Counted from the first letter of the stretch, positions 4,559 to 63,960 are shown. The stretch is 64,000 nucleotides of DNA from Amoebophrya sp. A120 (GCA_905178155.1 CAJINV010000007.1:2399151-2463150); one strand, 5' to 3'. Program-made: numbers and translations. The notes: generated by a model from the letters alone, not told the origin.

Positions 4559-7500
4559 TCACAGCTTCACTCTCTTCAGCCTCATCATCTGTGCTTCCAA
4601 ATTTCTCCTACTAGGAATAATGTAGGCACATTCAGCACTCTCCATCGTCAAAGCGTTCTTCCCCCGCGCAAGCAAAAACCATCCCGCCCAACCCCACGAC
4701 GAGCCCCAACTGTTTCGAACGACCCAATATGGGACTCCTGCGGCTGCAGGTACTACAGTGGTCGTGTCTGCGTTATTCTTACTTTCGTCACGTACTCGTG
4801 CATCTTCTCGTCCGTCTTGCCTATGAGTTGTACCCCATCCTGTTAGCTCAACAAAGTGGTCCACCGCGTGTCCCTTGCGAATCTCCGCATCGCCTAGATG
4901 AGGACCGGGGTCTAACACAACCGAGTTGTATCTCCTCCACTCTGGTACATCTGTGCTGGCGCTGTCGGGCGTATTTGAGCCTTTGCCTCCAATGTTCTCG
5001 TCCTGCGATTCGCCGTCAGCACGTCGAGCGCCAAGGACCGCGTTCTCCATTCTATACCGGTCGAAACTCTTCACGTTCGAGAAAAAACCGCAGGAAATCG
5101 GTCCGCCGACAAAAATTTCTTCCATCATCGTGAATTCGCTCAAATTTGGGATAATGCCAAACTCGGAGAGACGGAAGATGTTGGGATGGGCCTTGTCGCA
5201 GGTGTCGTTTGGGCCATCTTCCTCACCGTAATAAAGGGGCTGGCGCTGCGAGTCGTGCCGTATGACCTCCGAGCTTGTGCTAGAAGTGGTGGGGCTATTG
5301 TCAGACGACCTGCTTTCCTCCTCGATATTCGTTTGCACATACCCGCTCGCATCCGCTTTGTGGTTCAAGAAGCCACAATCTCCATTCCAGGCGCACGTGT
5401 AGCCCGAGAGGTGTTTGCAAACAAAATCCTTCTGCGCCGCGGAGAACGCCGGAAGCAGCCCAGAAGGTCTGTGATCTTCTTGCCGCGTTTTTAAATTATC
5501 CCGATCCGCATCATGTTGATCAGCACCACTTGAAGTTGCTGTAGTATCCGCATCGGAGTTCTTGCTATCTTCCTCCCTGTCTGTTTCTATTCCCGCCCCG
5601 GTCCCCCCTCCTCCAAACAAAACTTTATTTCCCAACGCCCCCGGCCCTTCGTACGTCGACATTTTTCCGCAGCACTCGATTCCCCAGGCGAACCCGTGGC
5701 CTCGGTATATTGGGTTCTCAAACGTTACATTCTCAACTGTATACATGATTTGTCATGCAAAATGACCATGACCCGCCAGACGATCAAGCTGCTTCGCATG
5801 ACAAATTCACGAAAGGTTAAATAGCACTGTAATCCGGATCAAACCTGTAATGCAAGACGCGCAAGGTTCTCCCTTTCGCCTGTGCTGGTCTTGCATTACA
5901 AATCCATGTAACAGTTGAGAATGTAACAGTTGAAAACGACATACGGTACGGGGCGTTGGTCTCGTCACTGGCGCCGAAGTGCTTCAGAAAATGCGCCCCC
6001 CGAATCGCCATGCCCGACCTGCAGTCGCCGCCGGTGAGAGAGTCGTCGAAGTTCAGCAGCGTCTGCATGGAGACTGTCGGGTCGAGCAGCCCCTTGGAGG
6101 CGATCCTGATCCGGTCGGAAAACGTCGCGATCAGCGCCGCGGCCCAGCAGTGGTAGCAAATCTTCCCGGCGAATTGGGAAAGGATTTTCGACGGCGCGAC
6201 CACAGTTGTGGTCGGAGATAAGTTTCTTGGATTTATCGCGCCGTTATTTCCTCCTAGTATGTTGGGTGGTATGACAAAGCTGTCGAAGCTGTTTCGCAGG
6301 CTGTTTTGTTTTCGTCGTGTGCTTGTTCCTCGCCACAGCTTGTGAAATTTCTCCCGGCGAAGACTCATTTCGGTCCAATAGGCGGGGTCGAGACGGGCAA
6401 GGTTTCGTGATTTTTGTGATGGAGATTCGTCTTGAACTTCATCTCTGTCCGCTCGGAGGTGTTGTTTTTGTTTATTTTCTTTTCCGTCGAGCAGAAACTG
6501 CAGGTGTGGATCTGGCCGGAAGTGAAGGTCTAGTTTTTCAGATTGCGCAGTATTTGCACTGGTAGTTCCTTCTGAAGATGATGGTACCTCAACCTTCCCC
6601 TTCGCCATGCTCACCAGCCTGGCCACGTCTCTTCGATCCGGTACCGCGAAGGAGCAGTGGCCGGATTCGATCTGGAACAAATTCACACCTCTCTCGAGGT
6701 AGAAGAAGCCGCGTAAACCCCAGTTCGTCCCGTAGGAATTTTTGCCGGACCAGTAGGGTGTTTCCTGCACCTTTCCGTACCCGACCAAGGTGACGACGTG
6801 GTCGGGTTCTGATGCAACTCCAACACTTGCAATTCTTCGTGAAGCTGAACTGCTATCGTGAACAAGATCTTGCTTTTTTTGCATAATCAAAGCATTGGTA
6901 CGGGCACCACCCCCATCCGGTCGCTCGACATCCGCTAGTCGTACCCCGTACTCAAACCGGTAGTTTTGAAAAACACTCTCCTCGCTGACAGCGACCCCGC
7001 ACACAATCGGTCCGTTCTTGTAGATCTCAGAACGCATCCGCTTCTCCATCTCTGCCACAGTCGCGGCAACCACGCGTCCGTAGAACTCCGCCCTGTAAAG
7101 TTGGTACGCGGGGCCGTGCGTCTGTTCTTGCGGTCGTTCCAGCTGCGTAATTGCAGAATCAGGGCCCTTTTCCAAATCGTATTGGATCGGTTTGTTTCCC
7201 GCGATCTCCGTGTTCCAAGCACACGTTCCGTTGAAATCGCAGGCACGGCAGAAAAAACTGCGAAGGTCGTCAACGGCTGCGAATTTCAAGTCCTCTACCA
7301 CGTCGATGCTGAAGCGCGATGAAAAATCGTTCCCGCGAGCAGGATGGCGATGGCTCCGCGCTCCTGCAATAGTAGATGACGTCGCAGCATCTTTGTTGCA
7401 CCGGTCGACGTGGTCCGTAGTGGTTGTAGTACTGGCCCCAGCTGCGCTACAGGTAGGTGTTTTCCCTCGTAGTTCTTCAACATCTACTGCAGCGGTGCTG

Positions 7501-8542
7501 TTCATCTCTACTTCGCTAAGCCTTAGATATGCTGCTGCGTTTTCCACTGCCGTCGCACGCTTGCCGCAACAGCCTGGACCCCACAGAGATTCAAAGGAAA
7601 GAAAGTCTTCACCGATTGTTCACGTTCACCAACTGCAGGTCGTGGAGAGTATTACAATTTTTATGACCGCGGCTCATTACTTCTAATTCTGACAGTTTGT
7701 TGTAAGTACGTACCCACATTGCAACACTTTTCAACAGTCGCGAGTTTCATTTTTATAATATCTACAAATGAGGTGCCGCATTTACAACAGAAACGTGCTG
7801 ATGATAAAGCTGATGCTGAAGTCTTTACTTTTCCACTTTCATAACCCAAGTCCACCCCTCCTTCCCAGATCGCGCAGGAGTCATCCGTGGTGCCAAACTC
7901 TTTGAAGAACCGAAACGCGTCGATCGGATCGCCTCCCTGACTGCTTCCGCCTCCGGTGAGACTCGAGTCGAAGTTGAGCAACAACTGCGGCGACAGCGCG
8001 TTCACGCTAAACAGCAGAGGGAAAGCGGTTTTCGTGAGTGAAGCTGCCGAAGACAGCATCATCGACCTCGCTATCGCAATCCGGAACCGATCCGCGAAGC
8101 TGGTTGCGGCGGCGATAACCCAGCATGTCGCAGAAGGTGCGGGGTTCAGTTGCGACACTTTCACGTCTTCGATAAGGTTGCGGAGGTTGAAGTTGTTTTT
8201 GTTCTTCTTGTTCGTCCCGCCGGACGTTCCGACAAAACGCCAATCGAACGACTGGAGATCATCGGTAACTTCGTTAGCATTCGCGTAGTTATCCCCGTCC
8301 TCATCTAATATCCAAGTGATTTCATCAGCCGGGGGCTCGGGATAGTTGGCATCTGCATTGCTGCTTTCGACACGGCTTCTGGGGTGAGGTAGAGTTGTCA
8401 CAGGTGAGGGAACATAGCACCTCGGTGGACGTGAAGAAGACGAGTCTCTCACAGAAAAAACTTGAGCAAATGGCACAACGAGGGCAGCAAGGACAACACG
8501 ACGACAGGGACAAATGAAAGCAGGAAAGGCCGACATTTTCAT
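4559..8542 (-). CDS. Secreted papain-family (C1A) cysteine protease with two tandem cathepsin X/Z-like domains; at least 3 exons
   Basis: Hydrophobic N-terminus. Domain 1: FDWR, SQ..ATCW..FADRFRI, GPIVCG, DHVVTLVGYG, KNSYGTNWG. Domain 2: SQ..YHCW..FSDRIRI, GPISCG, DHFVELTGWG, RNSWGSSWG. One intron is at 5708-5943; another at about 7580-7840 has unresolved boundaries. Confidence 0.9.
5708..5943. mobile_element. Introner/MITE-like non-canonical intron, family A
   Basis: About 50-bp imperfect TIR (TATTGGGTTCTCAAACGTTACATTCTCAACTG.. / ..CAGTTGAGAATGTAACAGTTGAAAACGACATA) flanked by direct repeat CGGTA. Removal with one DR joins NAPY-RGHG in frame. Confidence 0.92.
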
Positions 8543-9839: not shown

Positions 9840-10362
9840 CTACAAAACGACAAACGCCGACTCGTCGCGCTGCTCCGCTGTAAACCCCACCCCGTCCGGC
9901 GGTACCGACCAACAGTCGGCGCAGAAAAGGGCGTCGTCTAGTTCGTACTTCGCGTTCTCGTTTTCGCAGAAGGAGCACTTCAATTTCCCTAGACCCAGTA
10001 CCGACCTCTTCGTGAACTCCTTGATGCAGATATCCAGGAAAAAACACCCAACATCCCCATCCAATTTGTAGTCATGCAAAACACGTATATATAAAGTTCT
10101 GTGTTTGTCATGCAAAAAATGGATGGGGATGGGTTTTTTTCTTTGGATAGCAGAAAGCCGTGCCCTTTGGCGTAATCCCGACTGCTTTGTGGAGAAAAGA
10201 TCCGGCCGCGACCCCCAGCATGCCACCGGTGAGAATGCCGCCAATGGCGGCGCCGACGAGGCCGCAGGCACAAATTGTGGCGTCGGTTTCTGTCGTGTTT
10301 GCGAGTGATCTAAAGGAATCTTCTATATCACTATCAGCAGAACGTACACTTGTCAGTACCAT
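9840..10362 (-). CDS. Small hypothetical protein with Gly-rich hydrophobic segment and CxxC...CxxC; 2 exons
   Basis: ORFs 10108-10362 and 9840-10271 join in frame (GTAFC-IKEF) when element 10031-10149 plus one DR is removed. Contains CSFC and CADC pairs. Confidence 0.65.
10031..10149. mobile_element. Introner/MITE-like non-canonical intron, family B
   Basis: TIR TATCCAGGAAAAAACACCC..CATCCCCATCCA / TGGATGGGGATGGGTTTTTTTCTTTGGATA; direct repeat GCAGA. Confidence 0.92.
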
Positions 10363-10970: not shown

Positions 10971-13152
10971 AACGAAAGAAGAGCCTCCGATCGGTAAGAA
11001 AAAACAAAGAAGAAAGCGAGAAAAGACAAGATTTCATTTTCGTTTACCTGCATGCGTCTCGGCCGCGCGACAAAGCCCCTTGTGCGTGTTCAGGGGCAGC
11101 AACCCCTTCTCGATTCTTATATCCTGAGTAAAAACGTACCCACACCAGAGTTGTAATGCAAATCTGCATGCTGAGAATGTTTCTCATGCGGAGCCTCATG
11201 AGAAGCTGTTTCTAGTCGTGTTTTGCAATTTGTCATGCTCCAATCAGCATGGTATGCTAGGTCTGTGATGCTGCTGAGGTAGCTCAAACAGCACTACGCT
11301 ATGAGTCCAAATTTGTGATGCAAAACAGCCAAAACTTGTGGATTTGTCTAGCCGATTCCCCATCTTGACTATGGTGTGGGTACGTTTTTCGTCAGGATAT
11401 CTTATCTTGTTGACATAGTCGAGAATTTTTCTGGCGCACGGTATTACGAAGTTACTCGAGTACGGGGGCTTTTGAGGCTGTTCCCCGATCACCACACCAC
11501 GAGCTCCGGTTAGCATTCTTATCGCAGCTGATGTAGTAGTAACTGAACTGTTTGACAAGTGCTCGTTTATGTTGATTCGACGACTCCGGTGCTAATAACT
11601 AAGGCTCTACTCTGTAAGAAGCGCTAAAAAACGTCTCCATTTTTGTTTCTTCCCACGACCACGGAAGGTTGTAGTCCTCAGGCACAAATCAATAGACTCC
11701 TCACAGAAACGCGATATGGTGGAGCTTCATCTTCACTAGAATTGTAGTCGGCGTCGAATATGTGAGTGGCATCTGGTATTATTGATGTCCTGGAGAAGCT
11801 ACTAGCCCTTGTTGTTGACCTTGATGCGCCACTAGTAGAGGAAGATGTTCGCAAAAACACTCTCTCAAACTTTTTCACCAGAACGCCGACAGTCATTGCA
11901 GAAAAATACAGGAAAACGAAAGACGCGGGCTGCATCACTTATGTGTGGGGTTGTACATTTGGAAAGGGTGCGTCGGGGTGGGCGGGGCCAATATTGGGTA
12001 TGCGTATGAGTGCTGCTGTCCCGAATGAGTTGTTCCATTTCAGAGTGACAATGAAACGATCGAAAAAATCATCGAACGATGCGGAAGCTTCATCTCTCAA
12101 TTATACAAGGTGCCTTCGCTCCTGAGTTATCTCCTCTTGGATGTGTTTCCGATTCCGAGTTTCAGTCGCTGGGGCAAGCATGGCAGTGCGCAATCAACAA
12201 AGATAGTTAGAAGAACATCATCAACATTATTTTGCAAGTGCAGTGGTCTGCTCTATCCATGGTGGATATCATCAAACAACACATATTCCTTGAATTGATA
12301 GAAGACAACTTCTGGTGACCGTTCTTTACAGTAGTTGCCATCACAACTTGCACAACTATCACAGCTGCTCATCCGTCAGTTGATGCCAGTGGTCTGGTAA
12401 CACTTGCTCGACCGATGACCAAACCAAAATCTGTATTCTCATGATCCTTGGTACAAAAAACAAGCTCCAAGGGCTACAATTAGCGTTAGTCTTCGTACTG
12501 CTACAACTGTCCGACCTGAAGAATCGTTAATGTGATTGAATGTGTCCTCTCCTGAAAAGCTGTCGTCGCTGACTGTTATGATTGAATGTTTCCTGTTCGT
12601 TCGTCAACTTCAAGAAGCTACTACTGCTGTAGTGCTTCTCCCTCGATATTAGCCATAGCCGTAGCCCGCACTGTTAGTGTTTGGAATTGAATGCCTTCTT
12701 TCAAAAAAACTAAAACATCTAAGGATTGCTATTGCCCCGCATTTGCCGCGTTGCCAACATCGTCCATTCGCTGTCGCTTCATCATCGCAGGATCGAATTG
12801 CGGCCATGGGGGGTTTTCCTCATTTACTTCTTGTTCCCGTTTATTGTTTGCTGCTGGTGGTGGGGGTTGTACTTGTTGTACAACGTTCGCGACTGGAACG
12901 GCATTTGCGTCCGTTCCGAGCGGTGCATCGGGCACGGAGTAGTTGGTTCTGTAGTTAGTTTTTGGTCCTTGATAAGAACTTGCGCACGACCTCGACCACG
13001 TGGTCATCACTGCACTATAACTAAGTTGAGGATTTCTTCACCGTGCAGTGAAAAAATGGCCTGTAGTCAAGTGGCCATTGAAAGAGATATAGATTCTCAG
13101 AGAAGTGCCTTCTATGCGTATGAACAGAATAAATGATTTTCATTTTCATAAG

Positions 13153-14934
13153 TTAATACCCGCCCTGCTGTCCGTTCCACTTTCCGCCTTTCCCGCCCTT
13201 TCCCCAGCTACCTGACGATCCCCCGCCTCTTCCGCCCCACCATTTGCCGCCTTGCTGCGTACCACCGCCCGCCCACGGCGCTATTCCACCACCCGCTCCA
13301 TTTGCAGCACCCGCAGCACCACCACCGCCCCATGGATGATCCCCTGGCGCCGGCATGCCGAACGCACCACCCGCTGGCCCGCCTACGCCGTTTTGCGTCG
13401 CGACGTCCCATGCTGCTCCGGGTTGCATCAGCGGGTGGCCAAACATCCCAGCTGCGCCCCACATCGCGGCGGCCGCGGCCGCGGACTGCTGAGCAGGGTC
13501 GTCGATTTTCGGTAGCGAAGAGGAGCTGGAACTGAAAGACTCGGGCTTTTTCTTGCTGTTTAGACGTTCCTTCTTGTGGCTGTAGTGGGGATAATCTTCG
13601 TACATCTCCTGGACCAACCGCCGCTTGTTCGCTCTCGGAACATGCTTGATGTGCAGAAAGTTGCAATACCTGATGTGATGAAAAAAAAAAGTCTAATATT
13701 TCTCACCTGCAGCTCCTGCAGAGCGAGGAGGTGAAAATAATAAACAAAGCTCCGCGCACGAGCAGGACGACGGCGCACCAGAGAAACTTTTCAAGCGGTT
13801 AGAAGTACCCTCCGCGATTGCATCTCGCCTCGTGGAACGCGCGGCACCTCGCCTCCCTGAAGTCCGTGACCGGGGAAAATTCCGCCTTTATCATGCGCCC
13901 CGCGTTATGGGATTCTCAAATGTTACACTCTCAACTGTTGCATGAATTTGTCATGCAAGAAGAGCAAAAGTGAACGCGGGAAGATTGCGCGCTTTGCATT
14001 ACAAATTTGGAGCAGGTCCAGGTGGTGTTTAGCCCTTCGCGAATTTGTCATGCGAAACACCTTGATCGTGTGGCGGCTTATGGTCATTTTGCATGACAAA
14101 TCATGTAACAGTTGAGGATGAAGTAACGTTTGAGAACCCCATACGCGTAGTACCGCCCGTTCAACTTCTGCAATGCTTTCTCCGCGTCCTCTTCCATAAA
14201 GTACTTCACGTAAATATCGAAGAAAAAAACTTTGTTAGTGAAGGTGTCTACTTCGGGGGACAGCATGACAAATTTTCTCCGCATGAGAGAAAAAGCAAAA
14301 GCCTGCCAAGCACAGCAAGTACGTGAAAACACATATGAAAAGATGACGTCATGGGTGTCTGGCATGACAAGTGTATACTCTCTCGCATTTTCTGCATTAC
14401 AAACTTACACAGTTTTTTTCTCGCATAGTAGATGTTGCCCAACATGTGCTCGGACACGTTATCCGCAACGATCATGTCTTCTATCTCACCGTAGGTAGGT
14501 ATGCAATACAAAAAAATTTCCCGTAAACGACGTACACCATGCATGACAAGAAAGTTCGCCAGCTTGGAGCTTGCTACTAGTCATGCTCAATCATGTTCGG
14601 ACGATGGATTGGAAAAAACTTTTGTCATGCAGAAAAATAAGAAACTCACTTTTACGTCGTGAACAAAAAAAAAAAATTGCACTGTGGATAGTAGCCAGCT
14701 CGTGGAAAACCTCGTCGTAAAAATCTTCCAAATGCTTCTGCACGGCGTTGTAGGTTTCCTCCTCCCAGAGTCCCCCCGCTGCTATCTTCACCGCAGCGGC
14801 GGGCACGGGGTACATGTGGGACAGGAGAAGCGTCTGACTGGACGTCGGTCGCACGTGGTGTCGGGAGCACTGGTCGCCATGTCGGCAAGCGCCGATCTTC
14901 AGGTAGAAAGGGCAAGTGCCGTGCGCGTCCTCGG
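13153..14934 (-). CDS. U2AF1: U2AF35/U2AF1-like splicing factor, divergent paralog 1 (Gly/Trp-rich tail; 5' end unresolved)
   Basis: Spliced product has ZnF1 [48 protein letters not shown] and ZnF2 [25 protein letters not shown]. It has three introner introns plus one GT-AG intron at 13670-13808. Confidence 0.92.
13906..14143. mobile_element. Introner, family A (opposite orientation to 5708-5943)
   Basis: TIR TATGGGATTCTCAAATGTTAC / GTAACGTTTGAGAACCCCATA; DR CGCGT. The interior aligns with the reverse complement of 5708-5943. Removal gives [15 protein letters not shown]. Confidence 0.93.
14215..14427. mobile_element. Introner non-canonical intron
   Basis: TIR TATCGAAGAAAAAAACTTTG / CACAGTTTTTTTCTCGCATA; imperfect DR GTAAA/GTAGA. 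Removal gives the conserved GNIY-VKY. Confidence 0.9.
14500..14690. mobile_element. Introner, family C
   Basis: TATGCAATAC...GTGGATA ends with partial TIR; imperfect DR GTAGG/GTAGC. Removal gives FHELAT-YGEIED. Similar to the reverse complement of 28673-28874. Confidence 0.88.
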
Positions 14935-17176: not shown

Positions 17177-18674
17177 TCAATACTTCGCCCCCAAGTCGCC
17201 GTCACCTCTCCCGCGGTCCCGCTCTCTGCCGCGATCGTCTCTTCCGCCTTTATCCCTGCCCCTGTCGCTTCGCTCATACCGGTCGTCTCTACCTCGGTCC
17301 CGGTCGCGGCCTCGATCCCCTCCTCTCCCTCGGTCTTCCCGCTCTCGGGATTTGCCTCGCGCTGCTTTCCTCTTCTTGTTATCGCGCTCGAGAAATTCCG
17401 GGTGTTCTTCATACATGCCACGCACGAGCCTCGCCTTCACGGCACGGGGAATGTGCTTGATGTGCATAAAGTTGCAGTACCTGGGGGTGGTTGTGGGGGT
17501 TTGGATTTCTATGGCGTTGAAATGAGATAATGACGAACAAAAGATCTAGTTTTTTTATAATTGTCCCGAGGGCAACATAGAAGCAGACCCATGTAGTTGC
17601 CATCCGTGTCAACATTAACATTTCAGAATGAGAATCATTATCATCTGAAATAAAAAGTGCATTATCAGCAGTACCCTCCCCGATTGCAGCTGCTTTCGTG
17701 GAACTGCCTACACCTGGCTTCCCGAAAGTCCGAGACGGGGGAGAACTCCGCTTGGATCAACTCTCCGCCGTAGTACCGGCCCGTTAAATTTTCCAATGCC
17801 TTCTCCGCGTCCTCCTCTCGGTAGTATTTCACGTATATGTTCCCGACCATGTGGTCGCTTATGTTGTCGACGACCACCATATCCTCGATCTCGCCAAAAT
17901 TTGCCATTTCCTGAAACACCTCCTCGTAGAATTCTGTGAAATATAGGTTGGACCACAATTTGTGAAATTTGTATTGCGATGAAGCATGATGTTGAGCATG
18001 ATTGCGCTTGTTCTCATCAACAGAAATTACGACTCAGATGTGGTCATGTATGCATGTGTCACTTTACATAGAAGCTAACGAAACCAGCAGCAGCACCAGA
18101 ACTTTTGGAAGAGCATAATTTATCAACGAATTATACGCTCCAGATGCTTCTGCGCCACATCGTACTGGTCATCCGTCCAGTCTATTTCTCTTGCGATGGC
18201 GAGCGATTCCTGCGTGTTGGAGTACCTGCGGATGAAGTACAAATTCAAATTCTTGTTTGTCGATGCTCATGCTGTCTTCATGCGAAAATAAGAATGGCAG
18301 TGGGTACTATCCCTCATCTATTGAAATTTGTCAACATGCGAAGTTGAATGGGAAAGCAAAAATCAAAGAAACGCTATACATGTGACTCAACAACAACGTT
18401 TGCGAGCTCGTTGGTCGGTTGTGCTGCCGACTGCATTGATCGCCGTTTCTGCAGGCCCCGACTTTGAAGTAAAACGGGCAATTCACTCGGTCCTCTTCGG
18501 TACCTGGGAAGTTAGTAATTTTTTGTTAGACTCTTCAATTCATTTTCATTTATCCCTGCTCCACCAAGAAAACCATATGAAGAAACGAAAAGTAGGATGT
18601 GAATCCGTCTACTCATAGCTGTGCTCCACAGAAATGATAGCCTTACCGTAGATGTTTGCCAAATGCTTCGCCAT
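17177..18674 (-). CDS. U2AF1: U2AF35/U2AF1 splicing factor, conventional copy (paralog 2) with RD/RG-rich tail; 5 exons
   Basis: [41 protein letters not shown] ... GNIYVKY ... [25 protein letters not shown]. In-frame GT-AG introns at 18504-18646, 18226-18379, 17934-18136 and 17481-17674. Confidence 0.95.
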
Positions 18675-26000: not shown

Positions 26001-29000
26001 TGTGGAAAAGATGCTGCTGCTGTCATCATCTTCGTCTAGCGCAGCAGCTTCATCGTCTTCGGAAGTGAGCAAATCAGAATTATTTTCGTCAGCGAGTGAC
26101 CTGTTGGAGGAATCTTCAGAATCGAAGTCCTCTACTTCGCCATTACCTTCTCTTCTACGACCCTGTCGTTGTCTCCTACCCCGCCTCCTGCTCCGTCGTG
26201 GTACTGCGACCTGACCTCCCGAACAATCTGCTTTTCCTGCGTCAGCAGTAGTAGTTCTTTGCTCCTCGTTCTCCGCCGTCGTCGTTTTCACCCATCGCAC
26301 TGAGAAGCACAGCTGCAAACTCACGTCCCCCGCAAACGCAAACGCCAGTCCGTGGCCTCTCAGGAACGGGAATTTCTTCTGTTTGTACTTGAACCGCAGG
26401 TCTTGGATCTGGCAGCTCATGTCCCAAAGTTCGAAATTTAGCAACCGCGGATCCCCGGGAGTTGTGTTCAGCTCTAATTTCACACACTCTTTTTTCAATT
26501 TAAACCCCGCTAGGTCCAAGTTCTCCAGTTCATAGACCAAATCCTCCGATTCGCCCCCAAGTTCCGCGATCCGGATGTTCGGGAGAAAGGACATCAAAAG
26601 ATCAACCGCTGCGTCTAGAATTTCGTTGAGGAATTGGTCTCTTTTGTCGCCGTCCATCAACTTATCGATCGTGTCCTCGGCCTTATCGAATACCCTTCCC
26701 ACGTCGAGGTTTTCCAGCTTGGAGAGAATCTGGGTGGACACTGTCGCACTTTGTGTCCCTCCGCCCTCCGCTCCGTCTTGCTGCGGTTGCTGTGGATGCT
26801 GTCCTCCTTCAGGAGCCGAGTGGCCGGAATCGCTCGCGGTGGTGGTGCCGTCGTGGTAGTTTTGGAGCTGCTTGTTCTGTGCGACGTTTTTCGGTGGGCT
26901 GGAGGATAAATTTAAGGCGCTGTTTAGCAACCCTTGAATGGCAGAACCCTGGCTCGCGGCGTTGACTTGCTTCAGAATACCGTCCACCTTCTCCATAGCG
27001 GTCTCGGCTTTCGCGGCCACCCGGTCGTTGGCGAGGATCTTTGAAATTGTGTTCACCGGATCTCGTGTGAAGTCCGAGGCGGAAACATCGAGCGAAGCAA
27101 GGGTTTTGGACTGGAACAGAGAGGAAGAGGCTGCAGCTTCGTCGTCGTCATTCGCACTTCTTTTCCCGCTTTTGCTTTTCGACGCTGAAGAAGATCCGGC
27201 GCCGCGCTTATTTCTCCTACTTTTACTTCCCTTGGTACCTGTAAGATGGTCCGGGCTTCCTCGCGGGGAAGACGAAATCGTAGCTTTCGGAAGGAGTTTC
27301 TGCAATCCTGGGGGCAGTTTGATCCCGGCTTTGGACAGAACGGAACCAAGGTCCAGCTTGTCCAAATAGTCTAAGTTCTGCGCCTTATTCTCCCATTGCT
27401 CAAGGAGTTCTAAGCTGGTCTGCTCCTCGGTGGCGAAAGTTTGCACCCAGTTTTCGCACGTTCTGGCGAGAGTTTCGCGAATGGAAAGCGGTGGCTTGCC
27501 GGAGGAAAGCGCGTCCGAGGTGTGCTCGTCGAGCTGGAAAGGATTTTGATTTTTTTTCTAGTTTCCGCTTCGTCCCGGAGCATGCAAGAACGTAAGATAA
27601 AAGTAATGCTTGTGTACACTGCTCATGCAAGAACGTATAGAAACAAGTAAGGTCAACCTGTTGTGTGAGGCTGTTGCATGATCCAGCATTAAGAGGATAA
27701 AACCAAACGTGGTAAGTTGGAGTTTAAGTACCGTGCTCGCCAGCGAGTCGATTTCATCTCCCTGCTGCTGCAGCACCTGCAAGATTTTCGCCCTCGTATT
27801 CTCCAGCCAGTCTGGATTTCTTCTCAGAAAGCGCTGCTGCACGGAAGCGAGAATGTCCAGGCCCTTGCTCTTCCACACCTCTTCCCTTTCCAGCAAACCC
27901 TTTCCCAGGCTTTCCACTTCCGCACTCAACTTGCTCCCGAGCTCCCCCGCTAAAGCCGCGTTTTGCGACGCCAACGCAGCGGCTTCCGGATCTTGAGGTG
28001 CTACCGATTGTTGATCACCTTGAAGATGTTCTGGTCCCTGCGCAGCTGCCTCTCCTGCGTTATTAAACTGTTGCAAGGTCTGCATCAAGCGGTCCCCACC
28101 GAGTTTAAACCTTCTCCCCACGGCCGTGTCGTCGAAATTTTCAAAAGTTGAGCCAATCGCGTCTTTCACTCTGTGCACTGCGTGGTCCGCCTGCGCCGCC
28201 AGGTTCTGCACGTCTTCATCCTTCTCGAGTTCCTCTCCCATTTTCTGCACCCCGGTGACAAGTTTGGTCGTAATGTCAGAAAATTCGGACTGTAAAACCG
28301 TCCCCACGTGCTCCACTTCGTGTTCGAGCTCGCCTTTGAGTTTTCGCACGTCCTCGCGCAGACGTTGCTTCTCCGCTTCCGTGACTCCGGGGGCGGAAGC
28401 AGGTGCTGCTGGACTCGTCGGCTCTTGTTGGGGGGTGAGGAGAGACGAAGTGCCTGCATCATCTGCATCACGACCTAGACGGTCGCGCGAAGACGACGCG
28501 ACAGGTGAGAGCGGGGCACCGGCATCACCAGCACTAACACTAGAGGAACTTCTTGCAGGTGCGTTTGTGGTCAGTACATCAGGCGGAAACACAGCGCTCT
28601 CACGGGCAACACCTCCGACCGAATTCCGTTTATGCTCCTGCACCACCGCCGCAAGCCAGTCCGGCCTGGCGATATCCAGAGTAAATTCACCGTAACCGTA
28701 CGATGGACGAACTTACAAACGCGGTCTAACTACAGCATGACAAAATTTTGATCTACCTTCTGTCAATCCTAGTACTAGTCAGCATGACGAGTTGCACACT
28801 CCAAGTTCTATTGCGAAATTTGTCATGCCTTTTGGGTTTGCACGTCGTTTACGGGAAAAAGCTTGTATTGCATAGGCAATGCTCGTGTTCAACAGGAAGG
28901 AGCTCTGTCTTCGTGCCTTGACTAGATCTTTATCCACAGTAAATTTCCTGCACACGTACAAATGCAGTCATCTCTGCATGACAAAACTTGCCTTCAGTCC

Positions 29001-31291
29001 TAGTGTAGCATGACAAGTTGGACACTGCAAGTTAGCGAAATTTGTCATGCATTTTGTACATGTACAGGAAATTTACATTGCATAATCTTGCAGCGCGTGC
29101 TCCAAGTCTTCCTGCTCCTCGCAGCAGTCGTCGAACGAGAGGGAGCCGTCCAGTTGCGCAATGTCGGACGCGCGTTCCCACGTGGACACGTCCTCCTCGC
29201 CAGAAAGAGCCTCTTCGAATTCATCGTCACTCAGCGGCGTTTGCTGCACACGGAGCACCATAGCGCGCGGGGCTGCTTCTTGGGTCGCGACAAGATGATC
29301 TTCTCGTCCCGCGGGAGAGGCTGCAGTTGCAGATGTAAGAACATCATCAGCAATAATTCCACAACCCGTAGGGGCTTCTCCTGATGTTCCGGCGACAGCA
29401 CCCGCAGCAGAAGTTGGCGCGGGTGCGGGAGATAAAGAACCACCGGTCATGTTGCCAGATGGAGCTGTGCCGCCGCCCGCTAAAGTCGTGGACATCAACG
29501 TCTCCTCCAATCTCTGCCCAGTTGTTTCCTTCAGATTTGCCACGGTTTTCAGCGAGGCCTGTTTCACGTCCTCCACCAGCGTCGACGGAACCAGCCCGGC
29601 TTTCTCCGCGAACTTTTGAAATTTGTCCAGCAGCGCAAAGATCTTCGCTTGCCGCACACGCCACCTCCGTCGCGCGACTTCGAGAATGGGGAGCCAGCGG
29701 GCGTCAGATTCAACTTCGTCATAGAACCCAACCATGCCGTCATCGAAACAAACTTTCCAGGAGTATTGGGGCGGTAAGGTTATTTGTGCCATGCTAGATG
29801 TTCTTTCTCTTTCTCGCAGATCGTCGAAATTTGTCTGCTGGAGCTGGTGGTCCTGGTGTTCCATAATAGCCGCGTCTACTTGACTATCGGCATCACGACG
29901 TTCTCGAGCAACATCTTCTGATGCTGGGTCTACCACTTCAGCTTCCCCAGGAGCCTCACTTGTTGTTCCGGCACCCGCTGCAACAGTGCCAGCGGAGGCA
30001 AGTAGTAGCTCTCCCGCATTTATTTTCCTCGATGCAGTAGATGTCGCTTGTTGTTTCAACATCAGACCTTGTAGTCCACCAGCACCCCCACTGCTTATCC
30101 TCGCCGGGCTCAGCAGCGGCGCTCGCTTCCTCTCGCAACCCACGACCAAGCCGCTCCCGTGCACCGTTTTGCACTTCAGTCCGACACAGGCCGGCTCTTG
30201 GTGCGCGCAAAGTTCGTCTTTTGACACATACGCTTGAATCTGGAGACTCGGGAAGTCCACCACATGGATTTCGTTCTTCGATTGCCACCCCACGAGACGG
30301 AATTGAAAGGTAACATCTTGATCCGATTGAGGAAGTGTGAAGAAATCGTTTTACGACTTTCATCAAGTGCAGCTGGTTTTGGTTTACTTCCGTTGGAATC
30401 ATGCACTTTTTCATCTACCTTGCAAATCAATGATGAAGCAAAAGCAATCTACTTACTTGTTGATGAAGCATCATAGATCTGATCTTCACCTCTCGATGAG
30501 ACCAAAAGATGAGCGCTTATTTCCCTGATGCATAGCACGCCGACCCCGAAATTGTGCAGCTTTACCCGTACGCAGGCCCCGATCGGAAACTTCGACGCCT
30601 TCAAAACTTGCGACCTTGGCAAGGTGCAAAACACCTGCCGCTGGTTCGCGAACTTTGCCGCGTTGGACTTGTTCAGGAGCGTAACTTCCACTTTTGTCGA
30701 CTGCGCGCGCGTGCTATTCGTCGTGCAGGGGAAGCCCGTCTCCTTGCTGTGGATCAGCTTCACTTTGATCAGCTGGCTTTGGGACGATATCGGGTCCTTT
30801 GCGGAGGAGGAGACGTCGAGCCTGGTTCTTGAGGTACTTTTATTCTGTGACGATGTGGTATCCGTATCTCTGCGAGAATTTCTGCTGCTGCTGCTGCTCG
30901 CGCTGCCAGTACCCACGACCAAAGGAGAGGATGCGGCCTCCGCTGCAACAGGAACGACATCTTCTCGTCTCATCGCGTTGCCACGATCAGAATTTTTGTC
31001 GTAGTCCACCGCATCCGCAATGCACATGCCGATTCCGAAGTATGGTACTTCTACGTAGCGGCCAACAAAGGATGGCGCATCATGAAGACCAGGATCTTCG
31101 CAAGTCACACGCTCGTGCTGATCATATACCAAGGTGGTATTGCCCAACGCCTGCGTTATTACTCCTTCGCTGTCAACTACACCGAGAGTGGCTGCTGCAG
31201 CTCGTACATCCGGTGCAGCATCAATATCCGTCGCGGAAACAACGCCGTCAGATGGAGCAAGAGGACGAGACGACGATGAGGACACCTTCAT
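23004..31291 (-). CDS. Large multi-exon protein with a HAM1/DUF4449-like (TULIP/BPI-type) segment
   Basis: ORFs 30449-31291, 29073-30293, 27558-28646, 23415-27446 and 23004-23399 can be joined through introns (three introners, one GT-AG at about 27534-27731, one unresolved at about 30300-30534). LRFKYKQKKFPFLRGHGLA and LKLHVEETRFAWLYNILSKLF resemble HAM1-like C-terminal domains. Confidence 0.7.
23360..23468. mobile_element. Introner, family B (opposite orientation to 10031-10149)
   Basis: About 29-bp near-perfect TIR TATCCAGGAAAAAACACCCATCCCCAT / ATGGGGATGGGTGTTTTTCGTGGATA; DR TTTGT. Removal gives DFIYK-STRDY. Confidence 0.93.
28673..28874. mobile_element. Introner, family C
   Basis: TATCCAGAG...TATTGCATA ends; imperfect DR GGCGA/GGCAA. 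Removal gives NTSIA-RPDWLAAVVQE in frame. Confidence 0.88.
28931..29084. mobile_element. Introner, family C-related
   Basis: TIR TATCCACAGTAAATTTCCTGCACACGTACAAA / TTTGTACATGTACAGGAAATTTACATTGCATA; DR ATCTT. Removal gives HALQD-LVKAR. Confidence 0.92.
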
Positions 31292-37389: not shown

Positions 37390-40300
37390 CTAGTATGCCG
37401 CTGCCGCAACCCCGCCGGGCTCAGGAGCACAGCCACCTTGGTCCGGTACTACTTCGCCAAAGCCCTCGCAGGGAATCCCTGCGGTTTCGGCGCTCCCATA
37501 CGTGATCGCGCGCTTCTTGCCACAATTTCCCGCGGGGCCCCAGATCCGCGCCACGCCCAGCACCCTGAGTCGGTCCGCCAACAAAATTCCGCAGTCCGCC
37601 GCTTCCTGTCAACTGTAAAAGTGTCTGGGTCTGGAAGATTCTGAGATTTGGTTGGTTGGTTGGATAGCGCCTGTCGCCGGTGCAGGTCCCGCCCTCCATC
37701 GATTGCGATCCGGAGTAGCCGGAACACAAGGCCCTAGTGGCACAATCGATCGACGAAGCCCTTTATAACCAGGTCACGGCCATCCGGCTGCCCTGGAGTC
37801 ATTCGCGGGCCAGGCAACGTCTAGGAGCTACGAATTAGGGATCTTGATGGGCGAGACAGGTCACAGTCATCCGCCTGCCCATCGAAGACGAGCCAGGTCA
37901 CAGTCATCCAGCTGCGTTCACAGTGCATATTTTGCATGTCCAGATTTGTCATGCATATTTTGCATGCCCCAGAATGTCTGTAATGCACGACTTAGCATCA
38001 CAGGTTCTTCGAGAGCTTCCTGATGCCTCCTCCGCATGACAAAAGCCCTCCCCACGTAGCAGAAGCGAGACCTCTCTTGCTGGTCATGCAATACAGATTT
38101 TTTTAGAGTCAAAAGTTAGCATCACAAGTTGCATTCTTCCAGACCCAGACATTTTTACACCTGATACCTTCTCCAAGCTGTCAATGTCCGGAAAAAAGGC
38201 GGAGGCGTGGACTGAATCTTGCCCGTTTCTGGACAGCACTTCCGCAAGCATGTGAAGGGTTCCCGATACAAATGGTTTCTTGCTGCTGCCGATGCCGATG
38301 GTCGCGCTGGCGCTCTTTGAAGTAGAAACAGCTGCAGTTCTTGCGGGGGCCGCACCAGGGGGGAATGGGAACGAGGTGGAGCTACCACCTGCAGCTTCAC
38401 CGCCAGGAGTCGGTTGTACAACCATGTTGACGACGGTTGCCAACTTCTCCGGCGACGAGGCCACGGATGATGTTGAACAGGCCGATCTCATTGCAACGTC
38501 GAGCTCGTCGCTAGACGAGGACGAAGAGATTCCCGTGCTGCTTGTTTGCAAAGACGCTTTGCTCAACGTGTCTCCGATCATATCTGGGATTTTATTTGCC
38601 GATGTTGTTGCGTTAGACGAGCCTGTGCCTGCTTCTGTAGATGAGATTGTTGTAAAAGCGGATGCGGTTCCTGTTCCAGATGAAGGCCGCTCAAGTTCTT
38701 GTAGAACATCATCTTTGACTGGCGCAGCAGCTGCAGAATTTTTGTCCGGCACAAAGCATGTTCTGACGCCCATGGATATCTGACATCCGCCGTCCAGAGC
38801 ATTCAACAAGCTCCGCTCCGCCGTGCACCGGATCGCCGAGGGGAGATGCTCGATCTTTTTCAGTAATTTCAACATCTCTGCATCATCACACCGGCACTCC
38901 ACCCCGTACGCGCCCTGGGAAACCGCGTAGGGAAATTGATCTTCCTCCAAAACGAAGCCTTTGTCCTCCGAGAACAAACCCAGGCGCTCCAGCCCGACTT
39001 TGGCAAGGATATGAAAGCGTCAGGTTTGAAATCGACAAAGTTGAAATGATTTGTCATGCATAAAATGGAAGGCATGAAGTGCCTGTCTTGCCAGGAGGGC
39101 AAGTGAGGCCGACATTGAGCCTGTTTCAGGTTTGAAATAGAGCTGCTAAAGTAGCATGACAAAAGCAGTCGTCTGTGCCCAAACAGCATGACAAATTGGA
39201 TATCGGTGCTCGGAAAATTTGTCATGCGCTGCTTGATAAGTGGGCTTCCGACTGGTATCGCTTTTATGCATGACAGACTCTTTCGTCTTTGAGGATTTCA
39301 ATCCTCACACTCCCATAAAGGATGATGGCGTCGTAGATGCTGTCCTCGGCCTCCAACTTTCTCAACCGGGTCTGAAGGTTCCCGCGGATGTTCTCAATCT
39401 TCATTTTCGGACACTGTTTCAACACGAGCGCCTCCCGGCGGACGGAACTGCTGCCAATCGTCGCCGTCTCCCAACTATCCTGCGCAAAAGCATCGCGCTC
39501 GTAGTAATTCTAATTGCAGGCATGCATGACAAATCCATTTATTTTCACCTATTCTTATGCAGGTAAGTGGTCCGCAACCGCATTTTCAATTCATTTATTT
39601 TCATGATCATGAGGAAATCAAAACTTGTCTTCGTGGAACAAATACTAGAACGAAAGATGCTTTTGCAATGCGTAAGGAAGTTGCGTGAAAGAAGTGATGT
39701 TCTTGCCGCGGTACCGGGGGTGAAGCTGTGTGGTCAGGAAAACTCAAATTTTCATGCCCATCGACGTGGGTGCACCAGCTTCAGCTAACGACCGTGCGGT
39801 CTCAAACAAAGTTATCATGTGCCAATAACCAGTCAACGAAAATCATTCTAAATTAGGAACCCTCATAGTACCACAACGCAATCCCTTGGATCTCCTCTCT
39901 CCGTGATGCACCCCAGCATGAGACCCTCCGGCAGCACCGTGGGCATGTCTTTTAGGGAATGCACCGCAAACCTGCACTCTTTCGCGAGGAGTTGGAGTTC
40001 CAACTCTTTCGTGAAAACCCCGACGGAACCCATGTCGGCAAGATGCCGGTTCTGCACTTGATCTCCGACGGTGGAGGTTTCCAGCAGCGTGAACTTGTAC
40101 TGCTGTTGTGACAGATCATGATAAAGTAGTTTCCCTGTATCCAGTGCTCGAGTCAGCATGGCAATCACCGCGTTGGTTTGGTACAGCGCCAGGACGGATT
40201 TTCGAGAAGAGACGAAGATCTCGACAGCAGCGCCAGCGCTAGTCGTACGCCTAGAGCCATTTATTTTACCATTTTCCACGACCTCTCCTGCACAAGAACC

Positions 40301-57638: not shown

Positions 57639-58654
57639 TAAATATATTCATACATACTGTCTGTTGTATCTCATCACCATACCGAAATCGCAACGCGACA
57701 CCGGGAGATCCCGACGGATACGAATTGTAGTGTGAGAATACATGACTCTGCCTGTATGCATTCCTATCTAGCAAGAGAAATTATGACCATCTCAAAAATG
57801 AAATGAAGATTGTCGGACACATAAACCCACGTCCGGAGTGTAGTAGACGTGTCGTCTGGGTTTCCAGAGCTTGTCATGCAGGCCAAAAGGCGAAGGCACA
57901 AACAGGATTTGGCGAGGCGTTTTATTGCATCATTTCCATTACAACAAATAAGGGGGAGAGGGACGAGCTGCGCACTCGCACTCCTGTCATAAATAACCGA
58001 TCCTACTGTTGGTGATGTTAAAACCGACCCCAAGGTGCAAAGCCTTCCCTTAACACCATTTGAACCAGATCGGCGGGAATTTCGCAGGCTACCGGCGCAT
58101 GTCGATAGCTCGGTGTCGGGCACTAAAAAAAATATCATCTACCCGCCACAGTAGATGAGGGGCTTCTTGCTCAATTATGACTTGGATGCAGCTTCGGCCT
58201 GCGTTTTCTAGCGGGAATAGAACCAAAACTGCGCCCGTCAACAAAACCAAGCGAAGAAGGGGGAGCGGGGAATGAAGAAGAAAAAAATTTGCGGCGGCTT
58301 TCAAACCGAGACTTTTTTATTCCATGGACTGAGTTTTCTCGACGGCTTTCGACAGCTCTTTTGGTTTTCCTCATGTATCAATCTGCTTTCAGAGATTAAT
58401 CCGCTTTCTTTTCAGTTTTCCAGCGCCGGTGGAGTGATCGGGAGCTTTTTTTGCCATGGCGGCGGGACGATTTTTTGCCGCCGCAAATTTGGTCGGGTGA
58501 AAATCGAAAAAAGATCGCGGGCAGGAGCGTGCGAGAGTTTTCGAGCCACATCTCCAATGGTCCGCGGATATACAGATTCTAACGTGGTCTCTGGCTTCCA
58601 TAGGCAAAGGCATACATGCATGATACATCAAACTCAAAGCCAAAGCCAAAGGTG

Positions 58655-60935: not shown

Positions 60936-62961
60936 CTCTGAGGGGTAGAACTACGTCGCCAAGACCTACACAACAAGACGAACCTGGGGTTGTAGTAGTT
61001 CGCTTCGGTTTCGCTTCCGCTAGTAAATGAATGCAGATATTGCAGCGCCAACACTCGGCTTCTCCTGAAGAGCCCGGAAATCGCGAAGTGAGTCTAAGTC
61101 TTGTTGTCACGACCCAGGAGCCGTGAAAGAATCTTCTTTGCTCACACGCTAGATGCGCGACAATCCTGCTTTGAATTTGATATTGCAGTTCGTAATTGCT
61201 GTGACTGAGATGTTGCCTCTTGCTGCGACTACAACTTGGGAAGATCGAAAGAGCAACAATGTGACACAACAGGGGGATGGATCTTCGAGGGGGTGATGAA
61301 AAACGAGGGTGAAAAATTGTGATTGTGGTAAATTGTGTTTGTGACTGTGAGTTTGATGTGTGCATGATGATGAAGTGTGCGAATTTATCAAGGACTTGAC
61401 GGAGCCGAATGACGATACTGATAGCCAGCGTGGGCGATGTTGATGCACGTATTTGAGTAAAAAACGAAGCCTCGAGTCGATTTTTTTGGGCCACAATTTT
61501 TCCCAAGCTTTGGGCTTGTTGCACGAGCACGTGGGAGGGCTCACTGGACGAAACATTTTTGAACGACCGACTAAGTACAATAACGCAACGATAATAGTAC
61601 CGAACGAGTGCTGTACTGTACGAGTTTCAAGCGAATGACACCGAGCCGCGGTAGATCCATCTACAGAGTGTCAGAGGCATTTTTTGTTTTTTTCACCACG
61701 ACTATGACTATACAGGTCTCTACCTGATGTGGTGCCGCGAACGACGCACAAACCAAATCGTGTGCACGGACCGAAGAACCAAGTCAACACGATACTACAG
61801 TCTAACTCAGTAAGTATCAATCTGACATCATAACAAGCTCAAGCTCAACATCAACGTCACCCTTGTCTCGGTTCATGGCCTGAGATAACTTAAGTGCGTT
61901 TTCGTGGTGCGCCGTAATTTCGTTTGCATGGATTATTTTCTAGACGACCGAAAGACGTCAGAATCAGTTCACGATCGAAATTCTGACCTGGATCAATTCA
62001 CCACGATCGTTTTCTTGTTCAACTCGTGCGCATAGCAATAGCTTTAGCCAATACAGATCACGTCGTCGACGTCATTTGTCATTTTCTCTCAAGGCAGCAG
62101 CCCCAGCCCCACATCGCTCGCAGGAGGTATAGAAGACAAAGCCGATGCTTTTTTTCAAAATTCAAATTTTTGGCAGAGGCTGTTCACTTCCATAAGCTGG
62201 TCTTCCTCCATGCGCAACATCTGGTTCTTGATGCTTCAGTTTTTTCTTTGCAGCTTTTTGTACAGCTCACCTGCTTCTGTTACTTTCGAAAGTAGCCATA
62301 TGCAGAAACATACTGTACAGATGAATCTTCTCAAACCAAAAACCATTCTACAAGTAAGGGAAAAACAAGCGGTACTAGACACATCAAACAATGATCCGAT
62401 GAAAAAAACATTCATAAAGAAGGTAGTACGACTTCGTAGAAAAATTCACAAACATGTCAGCTGGTTGTAGTTGTAGGAAACGGAAGCACATACAGGCAAT
62501 GAATAATGGCGAAATTATAGATGTCGAGGTAGTTCAGGTTCACGCTGACACAAGTCAACTCGAGCTCAAATGCGGATACACAAGAAACTCTCTTGATATT
62601 GAATGTTGAAACAAAGACAAATTGAAAATCATCACTATTTTCTTTGCAAATACAAAAGGCAACAACCAAAAAAACTCCGACCCCGCGCCCCCTTTTGGTT
62701 TCCATCTTAAATTTTTCCTTCCCAAATGATTTTCCGCTCTTCCAGTTTCTTGGCACTGCTGCCCTATGCAGTGCAAAATTATTTATAGAATTTCTCTTTT
62801 CATCCTTGCCCGAAGTTTGTAATGCGCAGCTGCACGTGGGCGTGCGTACGCGTACATGTACAGGTACAGCAGTAGCTACCGTTACACTGGTGTTTGTACA
62901 TTGTACCTATCTGCTTTCTATCATGCATTACAAACTTCTCTAGCTCTGCTCTAAGTGGCTT

Positions 62962-63960
62962 TTATGTTTCTTTAGATGATTTTGCAAGGCATATGCTCAG
63001 CAGGGCGTCCAGATACGCCGTGGCTGAGGCACTGGACTTCGACAAAGCCTTAGGCGCCATCTCCTGGTCGTACGAGTTGGTTCGGCTTAACGCGTTTTTC
63101 AAGTAGTCTTCCAGTTTTTCTTCTTCTTCTTCCCGTCCCTGCTTGACCTTCTCGCCCACCGCTTCCCGGACGAAGTACGAGCGCAGCACGATCTCGCAGG
63201 GGCGCCTGTGCGCCAACAAGTTCTGCCGTCGCTCCGGCGTCAGCTCCGCGTAGGGTTCTCCGCAAACCTTCACGATGTACTCTCCCTTCTGCACGCCGCT
63301 GGTTTCTGCCCACGAATCCGCGACGATGTCGACGATAAAGTGATCGCGAATGTGAAACCCGAAGCCGAGTTTCTCCACCCCGAAGGGCACCGTGACGGTG
63401 CGCTCTGTGTACAGGCGCTGCTCGATAGGCTATCAAAGTGAAAAAAGCCCCCACCCCATACCGGAGACGGAAGATGCGCGAATTTGTGATGCTGTATTTG
63501 AGTACACAAGTCGACTTGTATTGCTAGAAGGCCAAGAGACGAGGCTGCGGCCTAAATTGCAGGCAATCTGTCATGCTGTTTCCCACTTCCAGTTGCCTCC
63601 TGTCATCCTGGAGCTGCAAGGCTTTCCCACGCTAGACAGCACTACAGTCCGCATCTTTTGCCTTCTAGCATCACAAAGCTGATTTTTGACCACAAATCTG
63701 CATCACAGATTTTCGCCTTGATATGGGGAGGGGGGACTTTTCATTGCAATATAGGCGGCTTGATGTTCATCGACCCCGTCACCGCTCCTGTGCTCGGGCT
63801 GGAAAGAATTTCTGAAGAGGTCATCTTAGAATGCATCGCGGGAACGACCACCGGAGACTCTCCATCCGGGTGGTCCTCCTTTCCCTCTTCATCTGGCCCG
63901 CCGGAGGAAATTTGCATCCTCTCCGCTTCGTCGGCCCCCCGTTCCCCCTCTGCGTAGGCG
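62962..63960 (-). CDS. PDZ-domain protein (partial; ends unresolved)
   Basis: KLGFGF..IVDIVADSWAETSGVQKGEYIVKVCG is PDZ-like. The upstream exon joins as MNIKPP-IEQRLY after removing 63431-63751 plus one DR. Confidence 0.75.
63431..63751. mobile_element. Introner non-canonical intron
   Basis: TIR TATCAAAGTGAAAAAAGCCCCCACCCCATA / TATGGGGAGGGGGGACTTTTCATTGCAATA; DR TAGGC; in-frame join. Confidence 0.9.

Follow-up and report, generated by a model that had tools for sequence, protein, structure and literature searches.

We analyzed a 64,000-nucleotide (nt) stretch of the genome of Amoebophrya sp. A120 (GCA_905178155.1, CAJINV010000007.1:2399151-2463150), hereafter the window, whose positions are counted from its first letter. 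The region is gene-dense, nearly all of its long open reading frames (ORFs) lie on the minus strand, and it contains 15 short elements of 109-560 nt that together make up 5.5% of the sequence and that lie, among other places, in the genes for U2AF35, HemC and a papain-family cysteine protease. An earlier note on this DNA had listed 12 of these elements as introns following one grammar, a 5-nt direct repeat with TAT...ATA inverted repeats and no GT-AG splice sites, and had taken them for non-autonomous transposon-type introners with a target-site duplication, of a kind known in Amoebophrya and probably not new. All 12 lie where that note placed them, and their grammar matches that described in the text of Farhat et al. 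(2021, BMC Biol 19:1, PMC7789003) for the introner elements of this organism. The elements are almost certainly these published introners and belong to a class that is already known.

Elements in the window

The full form of the element, in which the inverted ends are TAT...ATA and the flanking 5-nt direct repeat has no more than one mismatch, was found in 12 of the 15 copies; the other three are degenerate. The inverted arms measure 19-56 nt and are 72-91% complementary. Among the copies listed earlier the repeat is perfect in seven and matches at four of five positions in three (14215, 14500 and 28673), and it is for these 10 that the proposed grammar holds. The two deviants are 37607, which begins with TGT on the plus strand and has a repeat matching at three of five positions, and 54866, where one of five positions matches and the repeat is in effect absent. 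The elements are given below by coordinates and strand, with the evidence for each in brackets, where z denotes the score of the RNA fold.

5708..5943, minus strand: introner element of 236 nt, TAT...ATA, repeat CGGTA/CGGTA, in the papain-family cysteine protease gene (ORF and homologue alignment; z = -9.5)
10031..10149, minus strand: introner element of 119 nt, repeat GCAGA/GCAGA (RNA-like contig joint; z = -7.8)
11120..11399, no strand assigned: introner-type candidate of 280 nt, repeat TCTTA/TCTTA, not listed earlier (scans only)
13906..14143, minus strand: introner element of 238 nt, repeat CGCGT/CGCGT, in U2AF35 (RNA-like contig joint; z = -10.5)
14215..14427, minus strand: introner element of 213 nt, repeat GTAAA/GTAGA, in U2AF35 (RNA-like contig joint)
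14500..14690, minus strand: introner element of 191 nt, repeat GTAGG/GTAGC, in U2AF35 (RNA-like contig joint)
23360..23468, minus strand: introner element of 109 nt, repeat TTTGT/TTTGT (ORF continuity alone)
28673..28874, minus strand: introner element of 202 nt, repeat GGCGA/GGCAA (exon map of an annotated protein; z = +0.5)
28931..29084, minus strand: introner element of 154 nt, repeat ATCTT/ATCTT (exon map of an annotated protein; z = -6.3)
37607..38166, minus strand: introner element of 560 nt, plus-strand ends TGT...ATA, degenerate repeat CTTCC/CCTTC, in HemC (RNA-like contig joint)
39010..39317, minus strand: introner element of 308 nt, repeat AAGGA/AAGGA, in HemC (RNA-like contig joint)
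39476..39674, minus strand: degenerate introner element of 199 nt, TAT...GTA on the plus strand, repeat lost (1/5), in HemC, not listed earlier (RNA-like contig joint)
54866..55049, no strand assigned: introner-like candidate of 184 nt, TAT...ATA, good inverted ends, no repeat (GGTCA/AATGC) (inverted-end score of 18)
62765..62993, no strand assigned: candidate element of 229 nt, repeat TGCCC/TGCTC, not listed earlier (gapped scan)
63431..63751, no strand assigned: introner-type candidate of 321 nt, repeat TAGGC/TAGGC, clustering with copies in related loci (gapped scan; z = -5.5)

This combination of TAT...ATA ends with a 5-nt repeat occurs far above chance. A strict ungapped scan returned 5 matches in the window, as compared with none in 19 of 20 shuffles and a single match in the other, and a gapped scan returned 10 matches as compared with 1, 0, 0, 0 and 0 in five shuffles. 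The matching repeat arises only at the exact TAT/ATA boundary pair, and shifted boundary pairs give 3-5 mismatches. Depth of DNA sequencing at the elements was 100 to 4000x that of their flanks, and in the bin of the 11120 element it reached 47,494 against about 26 elsewhere, which indicates that this element is highly repeated. In four copies longer than 400 nt, the longest stop-free stretch spans 57-151 codons. A raw RNA run carrying the same species label (X10) gave 59 reads of 95-99% identity that fall only on 11318-11370, inside the 11120 element; all are partial matches that continue into unlike sequence, and a repeat related to 11120 thus seems to be transcribed in another strain. A second raw RNA run under that label (X9) gave no reads on the window stretches.

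Copies in related loci

When a metagenome collection was scanned for exact matches to the inverted end of the 37607 family, a related set of at least 139 loci from one assembly (243,833 nt) was obtained, so that this family is present in at least 139 loci of another assembly. The complete copies of the family there have TAT...ATA ends in 17 of 17 cases and a perfect 5-nt repeat in 15 of 17. Across the set we found 316 TAT...ATA inverted-end pairs, of which 175 carry a perfect repeat and 31 a repeat with one mismatch (206 copies), as compared with 2 and 7 (9 of 316) when the flanks were re-paired at random. The 206 copies contain 177 distinct repeats. Bases adjoining the repeat match in 48 and 35 of the 206 copies on the two sides, which is about chance, and the duplication is therefore 5 bp and no longer. 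A logo of 412 ends has A at positions 11-15 in 316-396 of them; in this logo TAT at positions 1-3 follows from the construction of the scan, and one family dominates the set. Several window families recur in the related loci. The 139 loci are otherwise not syntenic to the window, as all 28 matches fall at element positions.

The 37607 copy in the window carries about 300 nt of extra sequence (37640-37945) relative to the usual 262-nt members of its family, and DNA contigs of other family copies skip 298-310 nt at this position. The extra segment may be a nested insertion, or the copy may be a longer progenitor.

Removal from transcripts and proteins

Evidence for removal was taken from assembled contigs of public runs (X3, X4 and X5), which come from one sample and whose RNA nature was guessed ('RNA?'), and from a DNA run of the same organism (X1). 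The contigs were aligned to two stretches of the window, outside of which lie 54866, 62765 and 63431, and among the joints listed in these alignments seven correspond to loss of an element.

10025>10150: 124 nt skipped, ambiguity 5 nt, element 10031
13900>14144: 243 nt skipped, ambiguity 5 nt, element 13906
14209>14428: 218 nt skipped, ambiguity 3 nt, element 14215
14494>14691: 196 nt skipped, ambiguity 4 nt, element 14500
37601>38167: 565 nt skipped, ambiguity 1 nt, element 37607, in X3, X4 and X5
39004>39318: 313 nt skipped, ambiguity 6 nt, element 39010, in X3, X4 and X5
39471>39676: 204 nt skipped, ambiguity 0, element 39476, in X3, X4 and X5, with a shorter side of only 25 nt

Contigs from X3-X5 also lack 13 ordinary introns among the joints listed, which read CT..AC on the plus strand and hence GT..AG in the minus-strand genes, and in this respect the contigs behave as complementary DNA (cDNA). 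In the DNA run, at the level of contigs, depth was 0 for the joined form at all seven joints, and DNA contigs retain the elements. Altogether the removal of an element plus exactly 5 nt is supported for 11 elements, seven by contig joints, two by an annotated protein, one by a homologue alignment and one by ORF continuity alone.

The annotated protein is P0001 (a partial, unnamed protein product of Amoebophrya sp. A120 in NCBI, from a 4.65-Mb contig), which is 100% identical to the window ORF at 23418-27557 and all of whose exons map exactly. Its exon map omits 28668-28874, or 207 nt (202+5, element 28673), and 28926-29084, or 159 nt (154+5, element 28931), together with one ordinary GT-AG intron. 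Deletion of element 5708 plus 5 nt gives a 939-codon ORF whose junction, at about residue 559, falls inside an ungapped and highly conserved block of the alignment with a eukprot homologue of 35% identity (P0002), and Pfam Peptidase_C1 matches lie on both sides of the element; the protein search that gave this homologue did not return an A120 model of the gene. For 23360, the same deletion joins 1363 and 116 codons across the junction, and four other offsets tried gave at most 36 codons on one side. The spliced U2AF35 message is an intact ORF of 424 residues that includes GNIYVKY, which is restored at the 14215 junction, and in HemC the motif DAIILA spans the 39004/39318 junction, with Pfam Porphobil_deam matches in the exons flanking 39010. 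Both motifs, which the earlier note had listed as restored, thus span RNA-supported junctions. Retention of the element would place a stop in the host frame for all 13 elements tested.

Restoration of the frame by deletion of the element plus 5 nt had been proposed for all 12 listed elements. It is borne out by RNA-like contigs for 10031, 13906, 14215, 14500, 37607 and 39010, by the annotated protein for 28673 and 28931, and by the frame evidence above for 5708 and 23360; 54866 and 63431 have no such support. At 54866 the deletion lengthens an ORF from 879 to 937 codons, with an added tail of low complexity, and a protein database search for the gene returned no match. At 63431 the ORF test did not tell the offsets apart, and at 62765 the deletion did not join the two long flanking ORFs.

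Two of the host genes carry several elements each. In the U2AF35 gene (12294-16210, minus strand) a single transcript carries three ordinary introns with GT-AG along with three introners that lack AG, and the product of the gene is a protein that helps to recognize the 3' AG of introns. The HemC transcript has three introner introns, two of them with degenerate repeats, which restrict the possible cut positions.

Splice signals and cut register

No sense-strand GT..AG was found in any of the 15 elements in any of the six registers that remove the element plus 5 nt. This includes 37607, which had been singled out as the exception offering a GT-AG pair; the sense ends of its 565-nt skip are TA..AG or GT..AA, so the exception falls. 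At 14500 a GT..AG pair exists on the plus (antisense) strand only, and since the contig that skips it also carries three CT..AC introns, its transcript is of minus orientation. The sense ends at 39476 are TT..TG.

Where the two repeat copies differ (14215, 14500 and 37607) the messenger RNA retains the upstream variant in the sense direction, which at 14215 is the right-hand copy on the plus strand, so that the cut can move by no more than 3, 4 and 1 nt, respectively. The joint at 39476 has zero ambiguity and sets the cuts 1 nt ahead of UAC and 4 nt beyond AUA. Only one register fits all seven joints, in which one cut falls 1 nt ahead of UAY and the other 4 nt beyond AUA, and we infer that this is where the elements are cut. 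Introns cut in this way would start with N-U-A-Y. The ordinary introns in this region start with GTA in 14 of 14 cases and with GTAY in 11 of 14.

One ordinary GT-AG intron of the window (16984-17183) begins G-TAT and has a weak residual complementarity between its ends (29 terminal pairs). It gives no clean parse as an element plus 5 nt, and may be an old element that gained canonical sites.

Orientation, RNA structure and a shared subterminal box

Excision is independent of orientation. Minus-strand genes hold three family pairs (5708/13906, 10031/23360 and 14500/28673) whose members have opposite orientations, and each of the six elements is excised. The alignment score of 13906 with 5708 is 246 when inverted and 78 when direct, and that of 23360 with 10031 is 119 when inverted and 80 when direct. 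For RNAs of the elements the fold z ranges between -10.5 and +0.5, with 17-40 terminal pairs, as compared with a z between -3.2 and +1.7 for 13 canonical introns.

The elements also share a short sequence box near their ends. TTGTCATGC occurs exactly at 25 places in the window, where 0.66 would be expected, and 24 of these lie inside the 15 elements. Of the 206 related copies, 167 contain it exactly and 205 with no more than one mismatch, and it is found in 49 of 50 sequence clusters; by our own arithmetic, a match within one mismatch would occur by chance in about 5% of 250-nt sequences. Exact copies pointing inward from the nearer end number 185, and for 134 of them the distance to that end is 30-50 nt. 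The copy proximal to the 3' end, at 31-62 nt from it, reads GCATGACAA in seven elements and TTGTCATGC in six, and is lacking in two. The idea that the box serves as a strand-specific signal in the RNA, like a branch point, was rejected on account of this split of seven to six. As the orientation of the box is not fixed relative to transcription, a role at the DNA level, for example as a transposase-binding site, fits better, and the shared TTGTCATGC boxes would probably be bound by a putative transposase. Neither GTCATG nor CATGAC occurs in the main and supplementary text of Farhat et al. (2021, PMC7789003; figures not covered), and a literature search for the box sequence gave unrelated primer matches only, among the matches listed.

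The sole exact TTGTCATGC copy outside the 15 elements lies at 57871-57879.

Other features of the window

At 616-990 the window contains a tandem and palindromic array in which ATGTATG/CCATGTATGATGTA units recur at periods of 7, 14, 46 and 53 and which gave false TAT...ATA pairs in a relaxed scan. An uninterrupted ORF of 2905 codons with E1-E2 ATPase and HAD hydrolase matches occupies 42127-50841 on the minus strand and is free of elements. An Rfam search of the window returned no matches.

Mechanism of removal

The whole explanation that we favor, with a probability of roughly 0.55, is that the elements are short, non-coding introners inside exons that resemble miniature inverted-repeat transposable elements (MITEs), have a 5-bp duplication, are absent from mature transcripts together with one duplication copy, and are likely removed by a spliceosome lacking U1. 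Removal at the RNA level is, by itself, very probable, and the spliceosomal route taken alone has a little less than an even chance. Under this explanation a transposase, acting via the TTGTCATGC boxes, would insert the element into an exon and thereby create the 5-bp duplication, the U1-less spliceosome would remove the element with one duplication copy from the RNA, and the terminal hairpin and UAY start would, in place of GT-AG, pair the two cut sites. The spliceosome is suggested by the distribution of U1. The U1 small nuclear RNA was undetected in A25 and A120 (PMC7789003), and later papers describe Amoebophrya sp. Kv as having U1 and mostly GT/AG splicing, report AT5 as canonical, and restrict such introns to part of the genus; the loss of U1 thus co-occurs with these introns across Amoebophrya strains.

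Several observations weigh against this explanation. Searches of the window and of the 139 loci yielded neither an autonomous copy nor a transposase: Pfam matches of the 67 window ORFs comprise host domains only, and a scan for long TAT...ATA pairs of 1.5-15 kb gave one spurious cross-element pair in the window and none in the 139 loci. Farhat et al. also report no transposase in A120 (PMC7789003). The RNA evidence consists of assembled contigs from one sample of guessed RNA nature, and such contigs are blind to strand, to intermediates and to minor unspliced forms. The cut register depends on the single unambiguous joint at 39476, with its shorter side of 25 nt, and on the ends chosen for this degenerate element. 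Across the 15 elements no register yields a conserved dinucleotide at the 3' cut, which is hard to reconcile with the second step of spliceosomal splicing. Element 28673 is excised though its fold is no better than that of shuffles, and 39476 has a z of only -1.4. Mismatches in the stems, read as sense RNA, divide between G-U and A-C as 38 to 38 in the window and as 69 to 83 among the related copies with an assignable strand (39 of 206); without an excess of G-U, no selection on an RNA hairpin is seen. Together with the excision of 28673, this weakens any strict need for the hairpin, and the complementarity of the ends is explained by their being transposon ends alone.

The main rival to the spliceosomal route accepts the same elements and holds that a structure-specific endonuclease cleaves the terminal hairpin at its base, with a ligase then joining the exons, as proposed for euglenids or in the manner of tRNA or HAC1 introns. 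This would be in keeping with the lack of a boundary consensus in any register, with excision in either orientation, with the strong terminal hairpins of most copies and with a removed total that is always the element plus 5 nt. Euglenid nonconventional introns share the hairpin-joined ends, the non-canonical borders and the repeats resembling duplications and are released as circles (PMC11282704), and Farhat et al. themselves, in the text of their paper, favor a distinct removal mechanism (PMC7789003). It is nevertheless unlikely in our estimation, since the loss of U1 tracks these introns across strains, the weak-hairpin element 28673 is still excised and the stems have no G-U excess. The cuts would also fall beyond the stem, by 1 and 4 nt, which differs from the bulge-helix-bulge geometry of tRNA-type introns, and with the pinned register the N-U-A-Y start resembles the host G-U-A-Y. 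The 2024-2025 reviews and papers that were consulted give no resolution of how such introns are recognized and removed.

Two further explanations would dispense with RNA-level removal altogether. In one of these, reverse transcriptase jumps the hairpin between the 5-nt repeats, so that the elements stay in the messenger RNA and the genes are pseudogenes. Direct repeats around a stable hairpin with non-canonical junctions are a signature of template switching, and all transcript evidence, both here and in the published annotation, is based on cDNA. We consider such an artefact very improbable, as all 13 elements tested would put a stop in the host frame of genes that include U2AF35, HemC and a conserved protease, motifs are restored exactly, and elements with a degenerate or absent repeat (37607 with 3/5 and 39476 with 1/5) are still skipped precisely; tens of thousands of such introns have moreover been counted (PMC7789003). 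The other explanation is that the elements are cut from the DNA of transcribed nuclei in the manner of the internal eliminated sequences of ciliates, and indeed inverted ends, a duplication and the precise loss of one copy resemble precise excision mediated by a transposase. This too has next to no probability in our view, given that X1 has no contig with any of the seven joined forms, even though contigs can drop rare variants, and that the contigs lacking the elements also lack ordinary GT-AG introns, as expected of cDNA. Amoebophrya is not known to separate germline and soma. The earlier note had named retention in transcripts, use of nearby GT-AG sites and removal from DNA as outcomes at odds with its proposal, and what we observed was transcript-like contigs without the elements, no sense-strand GT-AG and no joined form in the DNA run.

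Returning to the U1-less spliceosome, a more specific model can be put forward, but only tentatively and as a doubtful proposition. One box and TAT termini for all families might reflect a single putative transposase, and the N-U-A-Y register might be read at +2 to +4 by the spliceosome, with the 3' site chosen by its distance from the stem and without AG. If true, the shared box would narrow the search for the transposase, and the register would narrow the model for splice-site choice. The window adds no new class of intron. It does offer compact test cases, namely U2AF35 with its 3+3 introns and HemC with its three introner introns.

Comparison with known systems

The internal eliminated sequences of ciliates differ from these elements in that they are removed from DNA, of which the seven joints gave no sign at contig level in X1. 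A closer likeness is to MITEs and other non-autonomous transposons with terminal inverted repeats (TIRs), which share inverted ends, a duplication of fixed length, small size, absence of an ORF, many dispersed copies and subterminal boxes. A 5-bp duplication is typical of Transib elements and of retroviral-type integrases, and the ends of Transib (CAC...) are unlike the TAT ends here.

The nonconventional introns of euglenids resemble the A120 elements in their non-canonical borders, in ends joined by inverted repeats, in repeats that look like duplications and in a likely MITE origin (PMC11282704). They differ in carrying CAG/CTG at +4..+6 and -8..-6, which is absent here, where the ends are TAT(C/G).../...ATA; circular excision products are known for them, and they belong to an unrelated lineage (PMC11282704). 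The introners of Micromonas and Aureococcus (Huff et al. 2016, as cited in PMC7789003) also arise by insertion of a TIR transposon that makes an intron, are removed with one copy of the duplication and occur in either orientation. However, these introners rely on GT-AG sites that the element brings along or that are recruited from the duplication (PMC7789003), as compared with 0 of 15 here.

For A120 itself, the families in Dataset S2 of Gozashti et al. (2025, PNAS, PMC12130899) are classed as 'TIR DNA', with 'Unknown' given as the superfamily, and most of their splice sites are non-conventional. Among 22 of the 58 A120 rows, automated calls put the duplication at 2-5 bp, and one family is marked 5 by manual inspection. 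Family '38' in that study has inverted ends and Copia/Gypsy-like ORFs and is possibly of an autonomous type (PMC12130899); no copy of this kind was found in the window or the 139 loci.

The closest match is with the A120 introners described in the text of Farhat et al. (2021, PMC7789003). According to that paper, no eukaryotes other than A25 and A120 have a majority of introns without any splice-site consensus, and in A120 over 60% of introns are non-canonical and 29,850 are repeated introns. Their inverted repeats are 8-20 nt and open with TAT, after which come about seven less conserved positions and a run of three or more A, and their direct repeats are 3-5 nt, or 5 bp in the legend of Fig. 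S19; canonical introns bearing such repeats exist as well. What defines the introners there was found here too, namely the organism, non-GT-AG introns with transcript joints, inverted repeats at the ends, a direct repeat and a TAT/A-run start. The two sets are alike in their TAT and A-run ends, in 5-bp repeats over the boundaries, in the lack of GT-AG, in hairpins, in their division into families and in being non-coding, and relative to the text of that paper nothing essential differs. Beyond that text (figures not covered), the present analysis contributes the TTGTCATGC box, the orientation-independent excision, the cut register and the finding that the stems have no G-U excess.

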